This document shows, in pieces, positions 5,047 through 42,306 of a stretch of 42,306 nucleotides of DNA (position 1 is the stretch's first letter; each line of letters starts with the position of its first letter). Below the pieces are notes generated by a model. That model saw only the letters and a program-made list of their open reading frames with translations. It did no database searches and had not been told where the DNA came from. The position numbers and the translations under genes are program-made. This DNA is from a bacterium (GTDB lineage Bacteria; Actinomycetota; UBA4738; HRBIN12). Location: positions 1 to 42,306 of the forward strand of contig JAHEXX010000003.1 of assembly GCA_023251895.1 (NCBI GenBank), in the 5' to 3' direction.

Positions 5047-6180
5047 TCAGGCGGAGCGATCCGCGCCGGACTCGTAGCGGGGAAGCCAGCACTCCACCGA
5101 CGTCCCGGCGCCGGGGCGGGTATCGACACGACCCCACCCCCCGGCCAGTTGGGCTCGCTCCAGCAACGAGGACAGCCCAAGGTGACCCGGGGCCGGACGG
5201 TGCAGGAGGGTTACATCGAACCCCTTCCCGTCGTCCGTGACCCGGATCAAGACCCCGTCGTCGACCGACTCCAGCAGCACGCCGACCCGCCTCGCCTCGG
5301 CATGCTTGCGGATGTTCGCCAGCGCCTCCTGTGCGATGCGGAACAGCGTGGCCTGCATTTCCGCCGGCGGCTCGGATTCCAGCCGATCGTCCAACTCGCA
5401 AAGCAGCCCCTTCATCGCTTCGGAGTACTTGAGGTATTGGCGCAGCGCGGCCGAGAGCCCCTCGTGGTCCAACGCGGGCGGCCGCAGCTCGAAGAGCAGG
5501 TTCCGGAGGCGCTCGATGGCGTCGGTGACCACCATGTGGACGTCCTCGATCGCGCGGCCGACCTCCGTGCCGGCGGACTCGTCGGCCAGGAGCCGCAGGC
5601 GCATGTCGGCCGCGCTCATGGCCTGGATGGGGTCGTCGTGGATATCCTCGGCGATGCGACGCCGCTCCTCCTCCCGGGCCTCCTCCAGTCGGAACAGCAG
5701 CTGCCGCCGCTCCTCCATCGTTCGGCGCAATGCATCGAGGCTCCGGCGGAGCTTCTCTTCCGCCTCCTTCTGCTCGCTGACGTCGAGCATGATCCCTCGC
5801 CAGAAAAGCGGCTCCCCCGCCTCGTCCCGAACGATGACCGCCTCGTCCCGGAGCCACACCCACCGGCCGTCCCGGGCCCGCAGCCGGTACTCCGCGCGGA
5901 ACCGCTCCCCGGTGACGCTGACCTTCCGGTCCTCCTCCGCGACCCGATCGACATCGTCGGGATGCATGATCGAGAACCAGAGGTCCGGGCGGGCCGTCCA
6001 ATCCGCCGGGGAGTAGCCCAGGATGGCCTCGATCTGGGGACTCGTGTACAGGTTGGTGCTGAGCTCGTCGGGGGCATCCACGTAGACCGCGGCCGGGATG
6101 CCTTCGACCAGGTGCCGGTAGGTCTCCTCGGCCTCGACCAGCCCGCGGATGAACTCCGAGGAGAGTGGGATCTGTCTCAT
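5047..6180 (-). CDS. Cytoplasmic PAS/PAC sensor histidine kinase, HisKA_3 (NarX/UhpB/DosS) type
   Basis: PAS (IMHPDD...EYRLRARDGRWVW), H-box ERRRIAEDIHD, QEALANIRKHA and DDGKGF. ATGA overlap at 6177-6180. Confidence 0.88.
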   Translation of the reverse strand: MRQIPLSSEFIRGLVEAEETYRHLVEGIPAAVYVDAPDELSTNLYTSPQIEAILGYSPADWTARPDLWFSIMHPDDVDRVAEEDRKVSVTGERFRAEYRLRARDGRWVWLRDEAVIVRDEAGEPLFWRGIMLDVSEQKEAEEKLRRSLDALRRTMEERRQLLFRLEEAREEERRRIAEDIHDDPIQAMSAADMRLRLLADESAGTEVGRAIEDVHMVVTDAIERLRNLLFELRPPALDHEGLSAALRQYLKYSEAMKGLLCELDDRLESEPPAEMQATLFRIAQEALANIRKHAEARRVGVLLESVDDGVLIRVTDDGKGFDVTLLHRPAPGHLGLSSLLERAQLAGGWGRVDTRPGAGTSVECWLPRYESGADRSA

Positions 6181-7890: not shown

Positions 7891-9000
7891 ATGGGGCGCG
7901 AGGCGCGAGGTGCGATCGTCGATGTGGCGGGCGGCGGCATCACGGTGGAACCCATCCTGGTCGGCCCGCCGGGGCCTGGCGAGGTGCTCGTACGCCTCGT
8001 CGCGAGCGGCGTGTGTCACAGCGACGAGTGGGCCCGACACAACGGGAACTGGGGCTTGCCGTTCCCGCTCCTGCTCGGCCACGAAGGAGCCGGAGTCGTG
8101 GAGGAGATGGGCGAGGGAGTCGAGGATCTCAGCCCGGGCGACCGCGTCGTGATCGCCTGGGCCGTTCCCTGCGGGGGATGCCGAGCGTGCCGGCGCGGCG
8201 CCCCGCGGAAGTGCGCCCACCAGATCTCTGGGCAACGTCCCCTGCGGCGGGCCCGGGACGGCGCGCAACTCTCAGGCGTGCTCCAGTGCGGCACCCTTGC
8301 GACGCACACCGTGGTGCTGGCCAGCCAGGCCATCGCGATGCCCGACGAGATCCCGCTGGAACGAGCTTGCCAGCTGGGGTGCGGGGTCTCCACGGGCGTT
8401 GGGGCGGCGCTCCAGACGGCGAAGGTGTGGCCCGGGGCCCGGGTCGCGGTCATCGGCCTGGGCGGGGTCGGACTGTCGACGCTCCAGGGCGCGAGGATCG
8501 CCGGCGCGGAACAGCTGATCGCTGTTGACGTCGTGCCGGCCAAGCTGGAGTGGGCGAAGCGGATGGGGGCGACCGATACGGTGGATGCGTCGGCGAGCGA
8601 TCCGGTCGACTGCGTCCTCCGGCTCACGTCCGGCGACGGCGTCGACTTCGCCTTCGAGGCCACCGGCAACCCCAACTGCGTCCGCCAGGCCGTCGAGATG
8701 GCCGGGTTCGCCGGAACCGCCGTGGCGATCGGCGTGCCCCCTGTACCGAGCGAGGTCACGCTTCCTTGGGCCGGCCGGGACGGAGGTGCCTACTCGCGCA
8801 AGGTGAGCCTGCTCGTGACCGACGGAGGTGACCCCATCCCGTCGGAGGACTTCCCCGAGCTCGCCCGCCGCTACCGAGACGGGGAACTGGACCTCGACGG
8901 GATGGTCACCCGGGAGCTCGCGCTCGAGGACGTGGAGGACGCGTTCCGGGCGATGCTCGCAGGCGAGGTGATCCGCTCCGTCGTCCGCTTCGACTCCTGA
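7891..9000 (+). CDS. Zinc-dependent alcohol dehydrogenase (class III / mycothiol-dependent formaldehyde dehydrogenase-like)
   Basis: GVCHSD, GHEGAG, structural zinc motif CxxCxxC-x7-C, LGCGV and GLGGVG. Confidence 0.85.
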   Translation: MGREARGAIVDVAGGGITVEPILVGPPGPGEVLVRLVASGVCHSDEWARHNGNWGLPFPLLLGHEGAGVVEEMGEGVEDLSPGDRVVIAWAVPCGGCRACRRGAPRKCAHQISGQRPLRRARDGAQLSGVLQCGTLATHTVVLASQAIAMPDEIPLERACQLGCGVSTGVGAALQTAKVWPGARVAVIGLGGVGLSTLQGARIAGAEQLIAVDVVPAKLEWAKRMGATDTVDASASDPVDCVLRLTSGDGVDFAFEATGNPNCVRQAVEMAGFAGTAVAIGVPPVPSEVTLPWAGRDGGAYSRKVSLLVTDGGDPIPSEDFPELARRYRDGELDLDGMVTRELALEDVEDAFRAMLAGEVIRSVVRFDS

Positions 9001-35132: not shown

Positions 35133-35842
35133 CGGGAGCCGCCCCCTCCGAGGGCCAGGTGCGTGTGGAATTCCTCGTGCGTGATCTGGCGGACCCTGCC
35201 GTCCTCGATCACCAGGATCCGGTCGCACTCCTGGTGGAAATCATCCGGATCGTGCGAGACCGCTACGACGGTCGCGCCGGCGTCCGCTCGCCGCCGGAGC
35301 TCCTGGGCAAGGGCCGGACGCAGGCGCTGGTCGATCCCTGTGGTGGGCTCGTCGAGGAGCAGGATGTCGGGATCCGCGACCAAGGCCCGAGCCAGGATGG
35401 CCCGTTGCTGCTGGCCCCCGGAGAGCTCGAACAGACACTCGGCCGACAGGTCGCCTAAACCCACCGACTCGAGTGCGGCGTTCACCTTGCTCCAGTCCCG
35501 GCGGTCCATCCTGCGAAGCAGCCCCTTCGACGGGGTGAGGCCGGCCGCCACCACCTCCGTGACCGAGACCGGCAGGGAGGTGGCCATACGGAGCCCTTGC
35601 GGCGCATAGCCGATCCGCCGCCGGATCGCCGGGTCGAGGGGCGAGCCGCCGAGCACCGTGACCGACCCATCCGCCGGCCGAAGGAGCCCGACGCACAGCT
35701 TGAGCAGCGTCGACTTGCCGCTCCCGTTCGCACCGGCCAGCACTGCGAACTCGCCGGCCGAGAGATCGAGGTCGACGCCGTCGAGGATGGGTTCCGCTCC
35801 GTACCCGAACCGCACCCCGGTCAGCTCCACGGTCACCGGCAT
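35129..35842 (-). CDS. znuC: Zn/Mn ABC transporter ATP-binding protein
   Basis: GANGSGKS, LSGGQQQR, LDEPTTGID and VSHD. Confidence 0.88.
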   Translation of the reverse strand: MPVTVELTGVRFGYGAEPILDGVDLDLSAGEFAVLAGANGSGKSTLLKLCVGLLRPADGSVTVLGGSPLDPAIRRRIGYAPQGLRMATSLPVSVTEVVAAGLTPSKGLLRRMDRRDWSKVNAALESVGLGDLSAECLFELSGGQQQRAILARALVADPDILLLDEPTTGIDQRLRPALAQELRRRADAGATVVAVSHDPDDFHQECDRILVIEDGRVRQITHEEFHTHLALGGGGSR

Positions 35843-36726
35843 CGCAGTCCCTCCCGGAGGGTGGTCAGGTTCGCGCGCATGACCGTACGGTAGTCGCCCG
35901 ACCTCGGCGCGAACTCAAGGGTCGACATCGGGAGCGCTGGAACGCCGGCGTCCGCGGCCACGCTCTCCCCGATCCGGCGCCCCTCCTCGGTTCCCTCGTA
36001 GAAGACGGCCGGCGCCGCTTCCCCCGACGAGATCGCGTCGAGGGCGACCTGGATGGCGGCCGCGCTCGGCTCGCTCTCGGGGGTGAGCCCCTCGATGCCG
36101 AGCTGCGTGAGGCCGTACCGCGCCGCCAGGTAGCCGAAGGCCTCGTGGGTCACGACGAAGGTGCGGGCGCCGCAGCCGCTGAGGCCGTCGCGGTAAGCCG
36201 CGTCCAGCGCGCGGAGGGCCGCGAGCGCGGCGCCGGCGCGCCGCTCGTAGCCAGACGTGCCCTCGGGATCGGCTGCCGCGAACGCGTCGGTCACCCTCGT
36301 GACCACGTGTTCCATCAGGACGGGGTCGAGCCACACGTGCGGGTCGAAGGAGAGGTTGTGCGCTTCCGAGGGCTGGAGCTTCATCCCCTGGCTCACCGCC
36401 ACCACTGTGCCGCTCGCCTCCCGCGCGGCCCGCTCGATGTCGGGCTGGAACCCCAAGTCGCCCAGCAGGACGACGACGTCCGCGGTCTGGAGGTCGGCCC
36501 GTTCGTTCGCGGTGAGCGTCGTGTCGTGGGCCTCCACGCCGGGCGGGGTGAGGTCCTCCACCTGCACCCGGGGACCGCCCGCCGCCTGGGCCGCCCACGC
36601 CAGCGGGTACATCGACGCCACGACCCGAAGCGCTCCTCCCACGCTCGTCCCGCGGCATGCCACGGCCGTCGCCCCGAGGGCGACGGCCATTGCGAGCAGG
36701 ATCCTGAGGGCTCGGGCCACAAACAC
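35833..36726 (-). CDS. znuA: Zn/Mn ABC transporter substrate-binding lipoprotein
   Basis: Lipobox AVAC, PGVEAHD, DPHVWLD and THEAFGY. Confidence 0.88.
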   Translation of the reverse strand: MFVARALRILLAMAVALGATAVACRGTSVGGALRVVASMYPLAWAAQAAGGPRVQVEDLTPPGVEAHDTTLTANERADLQTADVVVLLGDLGFQPDIERAAREASGTVVAVSQGMKLQPSEAHNLSFDPHVWLDPVLMEHVVTRVTDAFAAADPEGTSGYERRAGAALAALRALDAAYRDGLSGCGARTFVVTHEAFGYLAARYGLTQLGIEGLTPESEPSAAAIQVALDAISSGEAAPAVFYEGTEEGRRIGESVAADAGVPALPMSTLEFAPRSGDYRTVMRANLTTLREGLRCR

Positions 36727-36737
36727 TCACCCTAGTC

Positions 36738-36756
36738 GAGAATGATTATCATTTCA
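36738..36756. promoter_or_regulatory. Zur/Fur box
   Basis: AT-rich palindrome AATGAT-T-ATCATT (36741-36753) just upstream of znuA. Confidence 0.8.
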
Positions 36757-36812
36757 ATTCCGGGTCGACGCCCGGGTTGTGTGCGACGCAGCGCGACCGG
36801 TAGGTTTGGGGG

Positions 36813-37847
36813 GTGGCGGTGAAGATCGGCATCGGTCTGTTCACCGGGCAGATCCCTGCGGGATCGCCTCGGACCTTCGAGCGGGAGTTCCGAGAGACGC
36901 TCGACCTGGTTCGCTTGGCCGAGGCCCTGGGGTTCGACTCGGCGTGGGTCAGCGAGCACCACGGCTCATCCGATGGGTACTTCCCGTCGCTGCTCGTGAT
37001 GCTGGGGGCACTGGCGGCGGCCACCGACCGGATCGAACTTGGAACCGGGCTCGTGCTCGCGCCGTTGCACGATCCGCTGCGCCTGGCGGAGGACGCAGTC
37101 ACGGTGGACCAGCTTTCCGGCGGCCGGTTGATCCTGGGACTGGGACTGGGGTGGCGGGCCGAGGAGTTCCGGATGTTCCGCGTACCACGCTCGGAGCGTT
37201 CGCAACGCACGGACGAGACCATCGAGATCCTGCGGAAGGCCTGGACCGGGAAGCGGTTCTCGCACGAGGGGAAGGTGTTCCGGTACGACCGGGTGCGGGT
37301 GATGCCGCCGCCGGCCCGTCCTGGTGGACCACCGATCTACGTGGGCGGGTACGCTCCGGCGGCCCTTCGGCGGGCCGGGCGCCTGGCCGACGGCTACCTC
37401 CTCGACGCGGGCACCGTCGAGGAGGTGAGTCGGGCGCTGGCGCAGGTCGAGCAGGCGGCTCGCGACTCCGAGCGGGACCCCGAGGCCATCGGCCTGGCCC
37501 TCGGCCACAACGTGTGGGTCTCGACCGACCCCGATCCCTGGTCACAGGTCCGCGATGGGGTTGCGCACCAGCTCGGCGCGTACGCGGCGTGGGAGGAGGG
37601 ACACGACACGCCGGAACACGACTCGCTCGAGCCGGCGACCGACGGGGAGGAGTTCCGGCGCGCGACCGCCGCGGGAACGCCGGCCGAAGTCTCACAGCGT
37701 CTCCGCCCCCTGGCCGAGGCGTTCGGGGACCGTCGGGAATTCCACTTGATCGTGCGGCTGCACTACCCGGGGATGGACCTCGAGACCGCGGCGGCGGCCA
37801 CCGAGCTGTTCGCCGAAGGGGTCATCCCCGCCTTGAGGGGCAGCTAG
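36813..37847 (+). CDS. LLM-class (luciferase-like) flavin-dependent oxidoreductase
   Basis: GFDSAWVSEHH, PLRLAED, SGGRLILGLGLG and PPIYVGG. TAGGTT lies 6 nt before the GTG. Confidence 0.9.
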   Translation: MAVKIGIGLFTGQIPAGSPRTFEREFRETLDLVRLAEALGFDSAWVSEHHGSSDGYFPSLLVMLGALAAATDRIELGTGLVLAPLHDPLRLAEDAVTVDQLSGGRLILGLGLGWRAEEFRMFRVPRSERSQRTDETIEILRKAWTGKRFSHEGKVFRYDRVRVMPPPARPGGPPIYVGGYAPAALRRAGRLADGYLLDAGTVEEVSRALAQVEQAARDSERDPEAIGLALGHNVWVSTDPDPWSQVRDGVAHQLGAYAAWEEGHDTPEHDSLEPATDGEEFRRATAAGTPAEVSQRLRPLAEAFGDRREFHLIVRLHYPGMDLETAAAATELFAEGVIPALRGS

Positions 37848-38091: not shown

Positions 38092-38436
38092 TCATCGTCC
38101 GAAGTGGTGAGCCCACATCCCGCCGCTTCTCATGCCGCCCGTCATCATCCCGCCGCCTGGGCCGCCATCGGTCATCATGGTGGGTCCCATCCGACCCGCG
38201 CCGCCCATCATCTGACCCATCTGCGCGTGCATCGCGTCGCACTGCGCCCGCCACGCCGCCGGCATCTGCGCATGCATCCGCTCCATCGCAGGCGATTCGT
38301 GCATCGCGTTGCATGTCGCGAACATGGAACCCATCCCGCCGGTCGGCGCGGCGGAGCGATCCGCGAAGGCGAACCCCAAGGACAACGACAGCACGATCCC
38401 GATCGCGACTCCCACGAAGATCCAACGTCCCTTCAT
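38092..38436 (-). CDS. Met/His-rich exported small protein (putative Cu/Ag-binding)
   Basis: Signal peptide ending AFA, then CNAMH, ERMH, CDAMH and a GM-rich tail. AGGAGG RBS. Confidence 0.7.
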   Translation of the reverse strand: MKGRWIFVGVAIGIVLSLSLGFAFADRSAAPTGGMGSMFATCNAMHESPAMERMHAQMPAAWRAQCDAMHAQMGQMMGGAGRMGPTMMTDGGPGGGMMTGGMRSGGMWAHHFGR

Positions 38437-39863
38437 CGTTCTCCTCCTTCTTCCGCGCCAACGGTAGCCGGCCGGTATGAAGGCCCCGTGAAGTTCCCGG
38501 CGGACTCCGATGAAGGGCGTGGAAGGCGAACCGTGAACGTCGCTCCCGCTCCGGGCTTGCTCGCGACCTCGATGTCGCCGCCGTGGGCGCGGGTGAGCTC
38601 CCGGGCGACGGTCAGGCCGATCCCGGAGCCACCCGCCCGAGATCCCCTCCCCCGGAAGAAGCGGTCGAAGACGTGGGGGAGCTCGTCGGCGGGGATCCCC
38701 GGACCGGTGTCGGATACCCCGATGACGCCATCGGACCCCTCAGCACTGAGACTCACGGCCACGACCCCGCCCCGCGGCGTGAACTTGAGGGCGTTGGACA
38801 GCAGGTTGCCCACGATCTGGCGGACACGAGTGGGGTCGGCGAGAACGATCACGTCGGAGAAGTCGGCCAGCAGCTTCACCCCGGCGGCGTCGACGGGCCC
38901 GGCGAACTCCCGAACCGTGTCGTCGAGGATCCGGCGCAGCTCCACGGGTCGTCGCTCCAGCGAGAACCACGCCGCGTCGGCCGATGCCAGGGCCTCCAGG
39001 TCCGCAACGAGGCGCGAGAGCCGCAGCGTCTCCTCGTGCAGCGACTCGAAGGCGGGCGGGGCCGGTTCCACCACACCATCCTGCAATCCCTCGATCTGGC
39101 TGCGGAGGATCGCGAGGGGCGTCCTGAGCTCGTGCGCCACGTCGGCCGCGAAGGCCCGCCGCAACCGGTCCTCCTCCCCGATCGTGTCTGCCATGGAGTT
39201 GAATGCCCTGGCCATCTCGCCGAACTCGTCGGTAGCCTCGAAGGCGACGCGCTCCGAACGCTCGCCGGCGGCGACCGCCCGCGCGGCGCGAGTCAGCTCG
39301 CGCGCGGGGGCGGTCGCCCGCCGTGCCAGGACGACGCCCAACGCCAGCGCGACGAGGCCCGCGAGGATCCCGCCGACGAGCAGCAGCCGGTTCACGGAGG
39401 ACCGGAACGTGACGTCCTGCGGAAGGAGCCCCGGCTCGGGAAGCCTGACGATCGCCGTTCCGACAACCGCCCCGTTCACCCGAACCGGGAAGGACAGCGC
39501 GGGCCCGAGCGGCCCGCCTCCCATCATCCGGCGGTGCATCGTGGCCATCCGCGACCCGGCGGCGCCGGCGGACGGCTCCCAGATCCTGCGCCCCGACGCG
39601 TCGACCAGCCGGACCGTTCCTCCGTCCATGAGCGCGAGCGGGGCGAGCGTGTCCAGATCCACCCGGTCCCAGCCGCCCATCCTCGAGTAGGAGTCGGCGA
39701 GCGCCGCGGCGAGCTGGGCCTGCCGGACGTGCCTCTGTTCCTGGAGGTACGAGGTGAAGCGGGTCCCGAAGGCGAGGTTCACCAGGATCGCGGTGAGGGC
39801 GGCCGCCGCGATCCCCACCCCTGCAAACGCGGCCGCCAGCCGGAACGCGAACGACCTACGCAT
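38433..39863 (-). CDS. HAMP sensor histidine kinase (BaeS/CopS-like)
   Basis: Two TM segments, HAMP domain, VAHELRTPL, NLLSNALKF, DTGPGI and GSGIGL. MATMHRRMMG in the sensor loop. Confidence 0.92.
   Translation of the reverse strand: MRRSFAFRLAAAFAGVGIAAAALTAILVNLAFGTRFTSYLQEQRHVRQAQLAAALADSYSRMGGWDRVDLDTLAPLALMDGGTVRLVDASGRRIWEPSAGAAGSRMATMHRRMMGGGPLGPALSFPVRVNGAVVGTAIVRLPEPGLLPQDVTFRSSVNRLLLVGGILAGLVALALGVVLARRATAPARELTRAARAVAAGERSERVAFEATDEFGEMARAFNSMADTIGEEDRLRRAFAADVAHELRTPLAILRSQIEGLQDGVVEPAPPAFESLHEETLRLSRLVADLEALASADAAWFSLERRPVELRRILDDTVREFAGPVDAAGVKLLADFSDVIVLADPTRVRQIVGNLLSNALKFTPRGGVVAVSLSAEGSDGVIGVSDTGPGIPADELPHVFDRFFRGRGSRAGGSGIGLTVARELTRAHGGDIEVASKPGAGATFTVRLPRPSSESAGNFTGPSYRPATVGAEEGGER
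38461..38515 (-). promoter_or_regulatory. Internal promoter with OmpR-family direct repeats
   Basis: TGAAG at 38478, 38489 and 38511 (11-bp register), next to minus-strand TACCGT (38461-38466). Confidence 0.55.
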
Positions 39864-40554
39864 CCGGCTTCACCCCGAACTTGTAGCCGACCCCCGTCAC
39901 GGTCAGGACGTACCGGGGATGCCGGGGGTCGTCGCCAAGCTTGCGGCGCAGGTTCTTCACGTGCGCGTCGATGGTCCGCTCGTAGCCCTCGTAGTCGTAG
40001 CCTTGGACCTTCGTGACGAGCTCGTACCGGGAGAACACGCGGCCCGGGCGCGTCGCCAGCGCGTGGAGCAGGTCGAACTCGCTCCGGGTGAGTTCTACAG
40101 GCTCCCCATCGATCGCGACCTCCCGAGCCTCCCGGTCGATCACCAGCCTGTTCTCATCGAACGACATGGTCGACGGTGTCGCTCCGCCGCCCGCACGGCG
40201 CAGCACCGCGTCGACGCGGGCCACTAGCTCGCGTGGGCTGAACGGCTTCACGAGATAGTCGTCGGCGCCCTGGCGGAGGCCGGCCACCCGGTCGTCCTCA
40301 CCCGCCTTGGCAGTCAGCATGATGATGGGGAGATCGGAGTGGCTCCGGACGTTCCTGGCGATCTCCTCGCCGGTGAGGTCGGGCAGCATGAGGTCCAGCA
40401 CGAGGAGGTCCGGGTGGGCCCGCTCCACTGTCTCGAGGGCTCGCTGGCCCGTATCCGCCACGAGCACCGAGTAGCCCTCCCGTTCGAGGTAGGAACGGAC
40501 GAGGTCCCGGATCTTGCGCTCGTCGTCCACCACCAGGATCGTCGCGGTTCCCAT
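39856..40554 (-). CDS. OmpR/PhoB-family response regulator
   Basis: VVDDE, LDLMLP, GADDYLVKPF, RTIDAHVKNLRRKL and TVTGVGYKF. Confidence 0.95.
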   Translation of the reverse strand: MGTATILVVDDERKIRDLVRSYLEREGYSVLVADTGQRALETVERAHPDLLVLDLMLPDLTGEEIARNVRSHSDLPIIMLTAKAGEDDRVAGLRQGADDYLVKPFSPRELVARVDAVLRRAGGGATPSTMSFDENRLVIDREAREVAIDGEPVELTRSEFDLLHALATRPGRVFSRYELVTKVQGYDYEGYERTIDAHVKNLRRKLGDDPRHPRYVLTVTGVGYKFGVKPDA

Positions 40555-40659: not shown

Positions 40660-41781
40660 CTAGTTGTCCCTCGCCCCCTGGGCGATCCAGGTTGCGATGA
40701 GCTGGACCTGCGCGTCCGGCAAGGGCGGCACAGAGGGAGGCATCTGCATCCCGACGGCAAGCAGGTGGGCGATCAGCTCGCTCTCCTCCGGCTTGCCCGG
40801 CACGACCACCCCTTCCTTCGCCATGACGCCCTCGTACGTGTCCAGCCGTAGGTTCCCGGGGGGCGGCGAGTTCCGCGGGGCCACCACGTGGGGTCCGCCG
40901 TGCCGCTGGAAGATAGGCAGCACCTCGCCGGAGAAGCTCACGGTCCGGTCCAGCGGCATCGGCATCTCCCGCATCGGCATCGGCTTCCCGATCCGGGCCA
41001 CCGGACTGCGCTGGTAGTTCATGGTGTCCGGGGGGGACATGAGATTGCCGTGCGTCCTTGGCGAGCGCGCGACGATCGCCAGCAGGCTCCCGCCGATCAG
41101 CCCGATACCGGCCTGAGCCCCATAGGGCAAGGCTCGAGCGAGGAACTGCCGTCGGGACGTCGTCCCATGCACCTCGAGGGCGGCCGCCGGCTCCCCCCGC
41201 AGGATCTCGAGGATCCGCAACCCGACGACGAAGTACAGCACCCACACCAGCGCGATCACGCCCCCGAGAACCCACAGGTTCAGCCACCGGATCCGGATCC
41301 CGGCGTGCGAGCGGAACAGCTGACGGTCACCGGTCACCGTGTAGCTCGCGCTCGCCTCCGTTTCGCGGTACGTCGAGTTCCCGGCGAACAGCGCATCGAC
41401 ATCGCTCCCCCCCGCCTCCCGCAACTGCTCGGTGATCGTGGCCATGCCCATACGATCGGTGACGGCGCTGCCGATCAACATGTGGCCGTTGACCTCGTCG
41501 CCCCAGTACGCCGGCCGCTCGAAGTAGATCGTCGCGCCCGAGATCGGGTGACCGTCCGCATCGGTGAGGCTCGCCCGGATCGTGACGGTAGCCCCGAGCC
41601 TCACCCGGTCCGGGAGGACGACCTTGAGGTGCGCAGGGTGGTCGCCGACCGGCATCGCCGCGCCGGATGGCTGGGTCGTCGGCTCCTGCATCTGGCCGTG
41701 CGCCCACGCGAGCCTGGCCGGTGCCAGGAACGTGCCGACGAGGAACGCGAGGGCCAACGTGCGCCTCGCGGCCATCCTCAT
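40660..41781 (-). CDS. Membrane protein: signal peptide, Ig-like domain, TM, internal twin-arginine motif, TM, planctomycete-cytochrome-c-like domain lacking CxxCH
   Basis: LAWA cleavage site, TIRASLTDADGHPISGA, SRRQFL, and VSFSGEVLPIFQRHGGPH...LRLDTYEG...VVPGKPEESEL...MPP...WIAQGA. ATGA overlap with the NrfD gene. Confidence 0.78.
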   Translation of the reverse strand: MRMAARRTLALAFLVGTFLAPARLAWAHGQMQEPTTQPSGAAMPVGDHPAHLKVVLPDRVRLGATVTIRASLTDADGHPISGATIYFERPAYWGDEVNGHMLIGSAVTDRMGMATITEQLREAGGSDVDALFAGNSTYRETEASASYTVTGDRQLFRSHAGIRIRWLNLWVLGGVIALVWVLYFVVGLRILEILRGEPAAALEVHGTTSRRQFLARALPYGAQAGIGLIGGSLLAIVARSPRTHGNLMSPPDTMNYQRSPVARIGKPMPMREMPMPLDRTVSFSGEVLPIFQRHGGPHVVAPRNSPPPGNLRLDTYEGVMAKEGVVVPGKPEESELIAHLLAVGMQMPPSVPPLPDAQVQLIATWIAQGARDN

Positions 41782-42305
41782 GACGCCGCCACCCCCTGGG
41801 TACCGAGGGCCGGCTGCGCGGCGGGCACCGTATCCGTCCCCTCCTCGTGCTCGCGGATCTCCCACATCGACATCACGGGGAGGAACCTCGTGAACACGGC
41901 GATCATCAGGACGAAGAGCGCGAGCGCGCCAAGGCTGAGCGCGATCTCGATCCAGCTCGGCAAGTACCGGGCCGGATTGGCGTACGGCATCTGCGGCACC
42001 TTCAGGCTCGCCACGACGATGATATAACGCTCGAGCCACATCGCGACACCGACCAGCGCAGCGGCCGCCACGATCCACCGCACGTGCCGGGTGCGCCTGA
42101 CCGTCACGACCAGCACGGGGACGAGCAGCCCCGCGACAACGTAGAACCAGTAGAGCGGTGCGAAGGTCCCAGTGAAGATCTGACCGAGGTAGACGGGCTC
42201 GCTGCCCTCGAGCTTGTAGCCGGCGGTCAGGAACTCCGAGATGTTGAAGTAGAGGATCACGAGCGCGAGGGCCGCGAGCAGGTAGCCGAGGTTCACGAAG
42301 TGCCG
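41778..42305 (-). CDS. NrfD/PsrC-family membrane anchor, 3' part (5' end outside window)
   Basis: WLERYIIVV, YLPSWIE and FTRFLPVMSMWE, typical of NrfD/ActC/DsrP-type subunits. Confidence 0.82.
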   Translation of the reverse strand, partial: RHFVNLGYLLAALALVILYFNISEFLTAGYKLEGSEPVYLGQIFTGTFAPLYWFYVVAGLLVPVLVVTVRRTRHVRWIVAAAALVGVAMWLERYIIVVASLKVPQMPYANPARYLPSWIEIALSLGALALFVLMIAVFTRFLPVMSMWEIREHEEGTDTVPAAQPALGTQGVAAS

Positions 42306-42306
42306 C

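Follow-up and report, generated by a model that had tools for sequence, protein, structure and literature searches.

A cysteine-free PSCyt1-type domain behind an internal twin-arginine motif: a candidate heme subunit of an NrfD-type membrane module in an uncultured actinomycetote

Cytochromes c are defined by covalently attached heme, and it has long been asked what this attachment is for. The gene analyzed here, hereafter gene X, raises this question from an unusual side. Its product carries a domain with a cytochrome-c-like fold and conserved residues at both heme-ligand positions, lacks both cysteines of the CxxCH heme-binding motif, and bears a conserved twin-arginine motif in the middle of the chain. 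Would such a domain still hold heme, and by which route would it leave the cytoplasm? Gene X is the open reading frame (ORF) at positions 40660-41781 on the reverse strand (373 residues and a stop codon) of a 42,306-nucleotide stretch of DNA, the window, which is the entire contig C32 (GenBank JAHEXX010000003.1) of a 2.49-Mb, 94% complete genome of an actinomycetote of the UBA4738 lineage. It is the third gene of an operon, behind the genes of an iron-sulfur (FeS) protein and an NrfD-like protein. We established the architecture, conservation, homology, synteny and predicted docking of X in silico. In our judgment it is somewhat probable that X is the membrane-anchored third subunit of a quinone-linked FeS/NrfD module, and that its cysteine-free domain is loaded non-covalently with heme b and delivered by the twin-arginine translocation (Tat) system.

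The protein begins with a signal of the general secretory (Sec) type at residues 1-27 (41701-41781; this and all following positions in gene X are on the reverse strand), which is presumably cleaved at a cleavage-like site between A-W-A and H. It continues with an extracytoplasmic immunoglobulin-like (Ig-like) beta-sandwich (residues 45-152, 41326-41649) and a strongly hydrophobic transmembrane segment, TM1 (residues 166-195, 41197-41286), predicted to run from outside to inside. A loop of residues 196-208 joins TM1 to the twin-arginine motif SRRQFL (residues 209-214, 41140-41157), which lies on the cytoplasmic side. There follow a second, Gly/Ala-rich and weakly hydrophobic segment, TM2 (residues 215-238, 41068-41139; both segments by the Kyte-Doolittle scale), a conserved RSPRTHGNL motif directly outside it (residues 239-247, 41041-41067), a linker of residues 248-276 and the cysteine-free C-terminal domain (residues 277-373, 40663-40953). 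The same succession of parts had been proposed in a first-pass annotation made from the sequence letters by a model, and a scripted check found all of its coordinates to be exact. The AlphaFold model of X, with a mean predicted local distance difference test score (pLDDT) of 80.6, shows a first helix (residues 2-19), a beta-sandwich (47-153), two further helices (169-195 and 210-239) and a helical domain (277-373), most of which scores 88-98 with a single 10-residue block at 70. A single-sequence prediction of the C-terminal 174 residues had a mean pLDDT of 44 and was unusable.

What fold does the C-terminal domain have? The first-pass annotation had suggested a planctomycete-type cytochrome-c fold, and a Pfam match above cut-off together with a profile and structural match to FoxE supports this suggestion. 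The Pfam family PSCyt1 (PF07635) matches residues 309-350 with 26.4 bits against a cut-off of 22 (30.9 bits in the genome scan), over profile positions 12-58 (start at 11-12), that is, the portion after CxxCH. A profile search of the PDB with the C-terminal 135 residues of 23 sequences (the window and 22 loci) matched one distinct sequence, FoxE (5mab, E 3.1e-11), and residues 277-373 of the model align with FoxE in VIA-align with a Z of 9.6 and a root-mean-square deviation (rmsd) of 2.9 Å over 93 residues. When the full-length model was compared with the PDB by Foldseek, the matches listed were all Ig-like and the cytochrome domain was absent among them; a wide VIA-align search ranked FoxE only 27th. 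FoxE, from Rhodobacter ferrooxidans, is described as a diheme c-type cytochrome with His/Met ligation that acts as Fe(II) oxidase and belongs to the fox operon (PMC10654088). X shares with FoxE and the PSCyt1 proteins a homologous domain with a proximal His and a distal Met-Pro. Unlike FoxE and the planctomycete PSCyt1 proteins, which carry CxxCH, it has no such motif, contains one domain instead of two, and is anchored in the membrane behind a Tat motif.

A word-indexed search yielded 96 proteins, of which 85 including the query (P0001-P0085, E ≤6.8e-44) have the full architecture. Overall there are about 100 homologs. They are confined to uncultured members of the Actinomycetota, the Chloroflexota and a small number of other phyla, which may explain why they were not noticed earlier; their database names read 'hypothetical' or at most 'c-type cytochrome domain-containing'. 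The module is rare: of 401 genomes sampled from the phylum, 5 carry it, as do 3 of 22 other genomes of the same family. In a conservation alignment of 51 homologs (38-78% identity), R210, R211, R239, P241, T243, H244, G296, P297, H298, M347, P348, P349, W365, Q368 and G369 are invariant. The RSPRTHGNL-type motif behind TM2 is also present in the CxxCH-bearing relatives P0086, P0183 and P0222. A distant clade (P0076-P0085 and P0111, with the gene order NrfD-FeS-X) has a 20-40-residue Glu/His-rich insertion between residues 320 and 325 of X, which may be a cation-binding loop, and P0086 has a longer Asp/Glu/His-rich insertion at the equivalent place.

The heme-ligand positions were then compared with those of true cytochromes c. 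When the profile of the family was aligned with that of 55 CxxCH PSCyt1 domains (probability 99.9%, E 1e-31), His298 fell on the histidine of CxxCH, Pro297 on the second Cys, and the invariant MPP motif (residues 347-349, 40735-40743) on the conserved MP; the same motif aligns with the MPP of FoxE. The earlier expectation that the proximal His and the distal Met are retained therefore holds, with H298 and M347 invariant and Met347 the candidate distal ligand. It had also been proposed that HGGPH (residues 294-298, 40888-40902) replaces CxxCH. This is correct for GPH, which is invariant and brings H298 onto the histidine of CxxCH, but the first histidine is not conserved, position 294 being occupied by H, N, S, Y, F, K or R. 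The CxxCH homolog P0086 gives an equal residue correspondence for HGGPH. Because the family has xGGPH in place of CxxCH, X is by definition not a c-type cytochrome. Neither CxxCH nor a variant of it occurs in the C-terminal 135 residues, which are free of cysteine in all 51 homologs; covalent heme attachment is therefore impossible, though the domain retains its fold and both ligand positions. Two small PSCyt1 relatives, P0177 and P0238, depart from CxxCH in other ways, by an AxxCH-like motif that has one Cys (MAASCH) or by CxxxCH (CTANCH).

The export route is suggested by the internal twin-arginine motif. The proposal that SRRQFL is a Tat motif called for conservation of RRxFL, and such conservation was found: RR is present in all 51 aligned homologs, and the consensus over 96 family proteins is S/T-R-R-x-F-L. 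Position -1 is S or T in 68 of them, position +2 is F in 79 and L in 14, and position +3 is L in 87. In all 96, RR and the R.P.TH motif behind TM2 are spaced by 27-30 residues. The N-terminal signals of the family have no conserved RR, and for this reason the N-terminal ARRTLAL of X was rejected as a signal that would send the entire protein through Tat. The best 19-residue Kyte-Doolittle window of X scores 2.38 in TM1 and 1.51 in TM2, and the family means on this crude scale are 2.25 and 1.82. Two Lys or Arg residues occur among the eight residues after TM2 in 75 of the 96 proteins and one in the other 21, with R239 invariant.

According to the available part of Tooke et al. (2017, PMC5449189), low hydrophobicity of the last transmembrane segment and positive charges behind it govern the hand-over from Sec to Tat. 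Judged by its sequence, TM2 of X fits this rule and could be the Tat-dependent helix. Like the dual Sec/Tat proteins in that text, X has an internal RR before a last transmembrane segment of low hydrophobicity, positive charges, and a C-terminal extracytoplasmic domain of redox type. Unlike the proteins described there, its cargo is a cytochrome-c fold and not a Rieske, molybdenum-cofactor, FeS or phosphoesterase domain, and it has a signal peptide and one Sec-dependent transmembrane segment, preceded by a large Ig-like domain that would be exported by Sec. The family is not among the four that Tooke et al. name in the text available (Rieske, Sco3746, polyferredoxin and YkuE; PMC5449189), and no published description of such a cysteine-less, Tat-routed PSCyt1/NrfD family was found in the literature, where supplements, or the TATFind/TMHMM list that Tooke et al. 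give as an external file, might name a member. TatC is encoded in the genome (220 bits, contig C63).

Since the first-pass annotation had tied the RR motif to the loss of CxxCH, the two features were compared among relatives. An exhaustive phmmer search with residues 200-373 against 1.84 billion representatives gave 1333 matches at E ≤0.001, and 240 proteins were classified under a loose rule for the RR site (RR with an uncharged stretch, 50-130 residues upstream). These comprised 104 cysteine-less proteins with [GA]GPH, 124 with CxxCH, and 12 others or fragments. The RR site is present in all 99 cysteine-less proteins that have at least 100 residues before GPH, the remaining five being N-terminal fragments. 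Among the 124 CxxCH relatives, even this loose rule finds an RR site in nine, and 115 have none.

Does X belong to the NrfD complex, as had been claimed? The start codon of gene X and the TGA stop of the NrfD gene before it overlap in the sequence ATGA. The window contains the C-terminal 175 codons of this NrfD gene (41778-42306, reverse strand), and the rest lies on another contig of the genome, C116. Window positions 42152-42306 overlap C116 positions 7954-8108 over 155 nucleotides at 98% identity, which puts an assembly break, probably due to strain variation, inside the NrfD gene. Because the two translated halves overlap exactly over 51 residues (L003:7103-8107, L003 being the locus on C116), the operon continues on C116. 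The FeS gene there (L003 6142-7110) encodes a 322-residue multi-cluster protein, matched by Fer4_11 with 74 bits and, below the cut-off of 22.7, by TAT_signal with 19.5 bits, and the NrfD-like gene starts at L003 7103 (Pfam NrfD, 101 bits). The best NCBIfam match of the FeS protein is DsrO (174.3 bits, cut-off 200, residues 1-258 matched), and that of the 335-residue N-terminal part of NrfD is DsrP (113.3 bits, cut-off 350); the C-terminal 175-codon part matches QrcD, HybB and HmcC below cut-off. As these scores are below the equivalog cut-offs, the two proteins are relatives of DsrO and DsrP and not equivalogs.

The same three genes recur together. Synteny was analyzed at 24 of 33 family loci in species-representative genomes, 20 of which have enough upstream DNA, and in all 20 the FeS, NrfD and X genes are adjacent on one strand, in the order FeS-NrfD-X at 15 and NrfD-FeS-X at five. 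Of the remaining four loci, two begin inside NrfD at a contig edge and two begin at X. An apparent in-frame stop in the FeS gene of locus L014 was rejected as such: it is the natural stop, and the BLAST segment had run past the gene end. The metagenomic protein P0116 (819 residues) fuses NrfD (residues 15-414, 40% identical to the NrfD of the present genome) to X (residues 498-819, with GRRRFL at 652), although it is a single metagenomic cluster and may be an artefact of gene calling. In P0116 the signal segment of X would become an internal transmembrane segment, and the RR motif stands about 650 residues into a polytopic protein. Another metagenomic protein, P0112 (212 residues), joins the N-terminal 100 residues of the FeS protein, including the Tat signal and the first Cys cluster, to the cysteine-less domain of X; a deletion variant or a chimeric assembly would account for it.

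A complex of FeS residues 40-322 (alignment of 19 rows) and X residues 239-373 (23 rows) was modeled together with heme. The ipSAE score was 0.90 in all three runs, whereas the best control reached 0.00; the runs share at least 50% of their contacts, and the pLDDT of the partners is at least 81. Calibration had shown 58 of the 80 solved complexes and 2 of the 110 mismatched pairs to reach the mark; with custom alignments and a ligand carried along, these counts apply only approximately here. The predicted interface comprises, on the side of X, G296/P297, the family-specific and nearly invariant SPPP loop (S305-P308, 40858-40869) and MPPSVPP (P348-P352), and on the side of the FeS protein, residues 66-79 around the first Cys cluster as well as a C-terminal extension, which carries an invariant LEWPW and lies beyond the part matched by DsrO (residues 1-258). 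The claimed tie of X to the NrfD complex is thus upheld by synteny, by the P0116 fusion and by modeling of the complex, in which the controls were passed.

In the available part of PMC8076601, DsrJOP of DsrMKJOP, ActB/ActC/ActE, NrfBCD and Qrc likewise combine an FeS protein with a Tat signal, an NrfD-like protein and a small outward-facing subunit of cytochrome type. Unlike DsrJ or ActE, X is cysteine-less and unrelated to them. The same text, as far as available, lists 14 kinds of NrfD complex, each with a multiheme, molybdopterin or NiFe catalytic subunit, and none like FeS-NrfD-X (PMC8076601). No such catalytic subunit was found in a Pfam scan of the eight ORFs on C116, and Pfam detected no molybdopterin-like domain in the 322-residue FeS protein. 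The marks of alternative complex III (the pentaheme ActA, the molybdopterin-like ActB and the second NrfD-like protein ActF) are also missing here, with one NrfD match in the 94% complete genome and none of these marks among the eight C116 ORFs. The genome has two COX1, two cytochrome b, one NrfD and one PSCyt1 match. From the two COX1 and two cytochrome b genes, it follows that the module is an accessory branch of the aerobic chain and not its core; a role as a necessary replacement of the bc complex, like that of alternative complex III, was rejected on the same evidence.

For the biogenesis and role of X, we infer a scheme that includes Tat dependence, heme b, and a direction and partner of electron flow. 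Sec would insert the N-terminal signal, the Ig-like domain and TM1. The loop with S/T-RR-x-F-L, the weakly hydrophobic TM2 and the trailing positive charges would then hand the chain over to Tat. The cysteine-less PSCyt1-type domain, with H298 and M347 kept, would take up heme b non-covalently in the cytoplasm, and Tat would move the pre-folded domain over the membrane; because of this cytoplasmic uptake, the route through Sec and the Ccs system of cytochrome c maturation would no longer be usable by the domain. Outside the cell, the heme-edge face of X would dock on the FeS subunit, itself a putative Tat-exported protein with four clusters, and X would be the terminal redox centre that passes electrons between menaquinol/menaquinone (via NrfD and the FeS chain) and an external partner. 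The module probably represents an NrfD complex of minimal make-up, which links the quinone pool to an external partner through a Tat-delivered domain with non-covalent heme as its outer redox centre.

Heme is an accepted cofactor of Tat cargo, and in its available part a 2026 review of Tat cites heme cargo only via Sturm 2006 and Miethke 2013 (PMC13673990). Like the DyP peroxidases EfeB/YcdB, Tat-exported heme b proteins cited in the available text of that review (PMC13673990), X would load heme in the cytoplasm and be exported folded. These peroxidases differ from X in being soluble, in carrying their Tat signal at the N-terminus and in having an unrelated fold and chemistry; they are enzymes and not electron-transfer subunits. 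Both Sturm 2006 and Miethke 2013 are said to be work on DyP-type peroxidases. As to the fold, an engineered b-type cytochrome c552 (Cys to Ala) reportedly shows that the class I cytochrome c fold can hold heme without thioether bonds, and Tat export of cytochrome c derivatives is said to have been described by Sanders 2001. Those proteins are laboratory constructs, whereas X would represent a natural, conserved family.

The Ig-like domain would be exported ahead of the redox domain. Pfam matches it to Big_1 and Big_3_5 over residues 58-150, both below cut-off, and Foldseek agrees with an Ig-like fold of invasin/intimin/macroglobulin type. In VIA-align, it reaches Z values of 10-12 against invasin, intimin and macroglobulin domains, with 11.5 for invasin 1cwv (rmsd 2.1 over 89 aligned residues). 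It has no conserved His, Cys or Met.

Upstream of the operon, C116 carries genes for a redoxin, a GAF-HisKA_3-HATPase kinase (L003 4185-5432, forward strand) and a NarL/LuxR-type regulator (about 5384-6049, forward strand), the last two directly upstream of the FeS gene; this domain layout is that of DosS/DosR-type redox sensors. A similar regulator is directly upstream in 11 of 20 related loci. The region directly downstream of X (38433-40554, reverse strand) encodes a response regulator of OmpR type together with a histidine kinase resembling BaeS/CopS, a pair that stands beside the module in nine related loci (the copy in L021 is cut at a contig edge). Next comes a 114-residue membrane-anchored protein very rich in Met, His and Gly (38092-38436, reverse strand), which gave no match in Pfam or NCBIfam, may be metal-binding, and is found beside the BaeS-like kinase in four related loci (L005, L006, L008 and L009). 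A SHOCT protein is also encoded downstream of X in the window. Farther away, at 35833-37847, are genes for a ZnuA-type metal-binding lipoprotein (reverse strand) and a luciferase-like monooxygenase (forward strand), whose link to the module is not evident.

It is worth noting that several observations weigh against a heme-loaded, Tat-delivered X. First, the proposed co-variation of RR and loss of Cys stands as a count, 99 of 99 cysteine-less proteins against 9 of 124 with CxxCH, but it is unreplicated. In a quick maximum-likelihood tree of the domains with Shimodaira-Hasegawa-like approximate likelihood-ratio (SH-aLRT) support, 102 cysteine-less domains form one group (91) with the single CxxCH sister P0086 (92); the link is therefore consistent with a single event and not with repeated co-variation. 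Moreover, P0086 itself begins with MRRTAL and passes the loose RR rule, and its relative P0183 begins with MRSAML; both are signal-anchored proteins that retain a post-transmembrane motif, RSPYTH. Second, the genome encodes CcsA and ResB, a working-looking Ccs system, so that the loss of Cys was not forced by missing c-type maturation, and an absent maturation system was rejected as its cause. Third, the Kyte-Doolittle ranges overlap in the family (1.75-2.65 for TM1 and 1.32-2.24 for TM2), and the linker at residues 241-264 has low confidence in the AlphaFold model (pLDDT <50). Fourth, the motif alignment with the CxxCH domains requires a one-residue gap and puts Pro at the second-Cys position, and this could disturb the heme pocket. 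Finally, the heme in the complex model was carried along, its position having no score.

The surroundings of the sister protein were also searched. A metagenome scan for P0086 found no close relative, the best matches being 48-56% identical over segments, and NrfD/FeS genes were nearby in 2 of 80 loci, on the other strand. A search for a P0086-type sister in 401 Chloroflexota genomes and four further genomes returned only X itself. In the metagenomic loci L056 and L115, some 1.6 kb separate the gene of a PSCyt1 protein with CxxCH from an NrfD/FeS pair on the opposite strand, which is 39-43% identical to the pair here; this may be another link between PSCyt1 and NrfCD.

Three other explanations were weighed. 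The strongest of them, although we regard it as rather unlikely, is that the cysteine-less domain is a pseudo-cytochrome free of any cofactor, which would serve only for docking, as a structural element or to shield the last FeS cluster, and would use Tat because it folds fast in the cytoplasm or is pre-assembled with the FeS subunit. Both Cys are lost in every member, the motif region has the gap and the Pro described above, and the FeS partner has its own Tat signal. The conserved SPPP, MPPSVPP and GGP lie largely in the predicted FeS interface, so their conservation could serve binding alone. However, His298 and Met347 occupy both heme-ligand positions and are invariant over 38-78% identity, and all 124 CxxCH relatives use an equal scaffold for heme. 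An FeS-only module without a terminal centre would also be unlike every NrfD complex in the available part of PMC8076601.

A quite improbable alternative is that the domain binds something other than heme, for example a copper or iron ion, through His244, His298 and Met347, and that the module acts in metal redox or stress. FoxE, the sole solved relative, is described as an Fe(II) oxidase in the source as available (PMC10654088), and the insertions of the distant members (Glu/His-rich) and of P0086 (Asp/Glu/His-rich) would suit such a site. So would the neighbours, namely the BaeS/CopS-like kinase and OmpR-type regulator, the Met/His-rich 114-residue protein (four loci), a YHS-domain protein and the redoxin. 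A Met-rich stretch, MPMREMPMP, precedes the domain, but it is not conserved, P274 alone being invariant. H244 is shared with CxxCH relatives and therefore does not compensate for the loss of Cys. Known Tat-exported copper enzymes receive their copper after export, and a metal site would thus not explain the switch to Tat. The least probable alternative, that RR is only a positive-inside topology signal in a protein inserted entirely by Sec/YidC, is in keeping with the positive charges expected in a cytoplasmic loop and with the overlap of TM2 and TM1 hydrophobicity in some members, but Lys replaces neither Arg in any of the 51 homologs, the Tat-consensus S/T, F and L flanks are kept, the N-terminal signals of the same proteins have no such conservation, and the conserved positive charges outside TM2 break the positive-inside rule while fitting release from Sec.

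We return to X as a putative Tat-delivered subunit with non-covalent heme b. In its widest form, which we consider possible but somewhat short of probable, this reading describes a natural conversion of a c-type into a b-type cytochrome, coupled to a switch from Sec plus Ccs to Tat. X would then represent the fifth dual Sec/Tat family and the first Tat-exported hemoprotein with a cytochrome-c fold. It would also be the terminal centre of an undescribed minimal NrfD complex (FeS, NrfD and one heme) under a DosS/DosR-like GAF-kinase regulator. In view of the homology with FoxE and of the acidic/His-rich inserts, this complex might act on extracellular metal ions. If this is true, a natural lineage that dropped both Cys, kept the axial ligands and gained a Tat signal at once would be a ready-made test case for the role of covalent attachment. 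The cytochrome-c fold would work with non-covalent heme when loaded in the cytoplasm, and the chemistry of the cofactor would dictate the export route. The short list of membrane proteins that require Sec and Tat together would grow, and the NrfD energy-transducing family would gain a three-subunit member free of a catalytic subunit.

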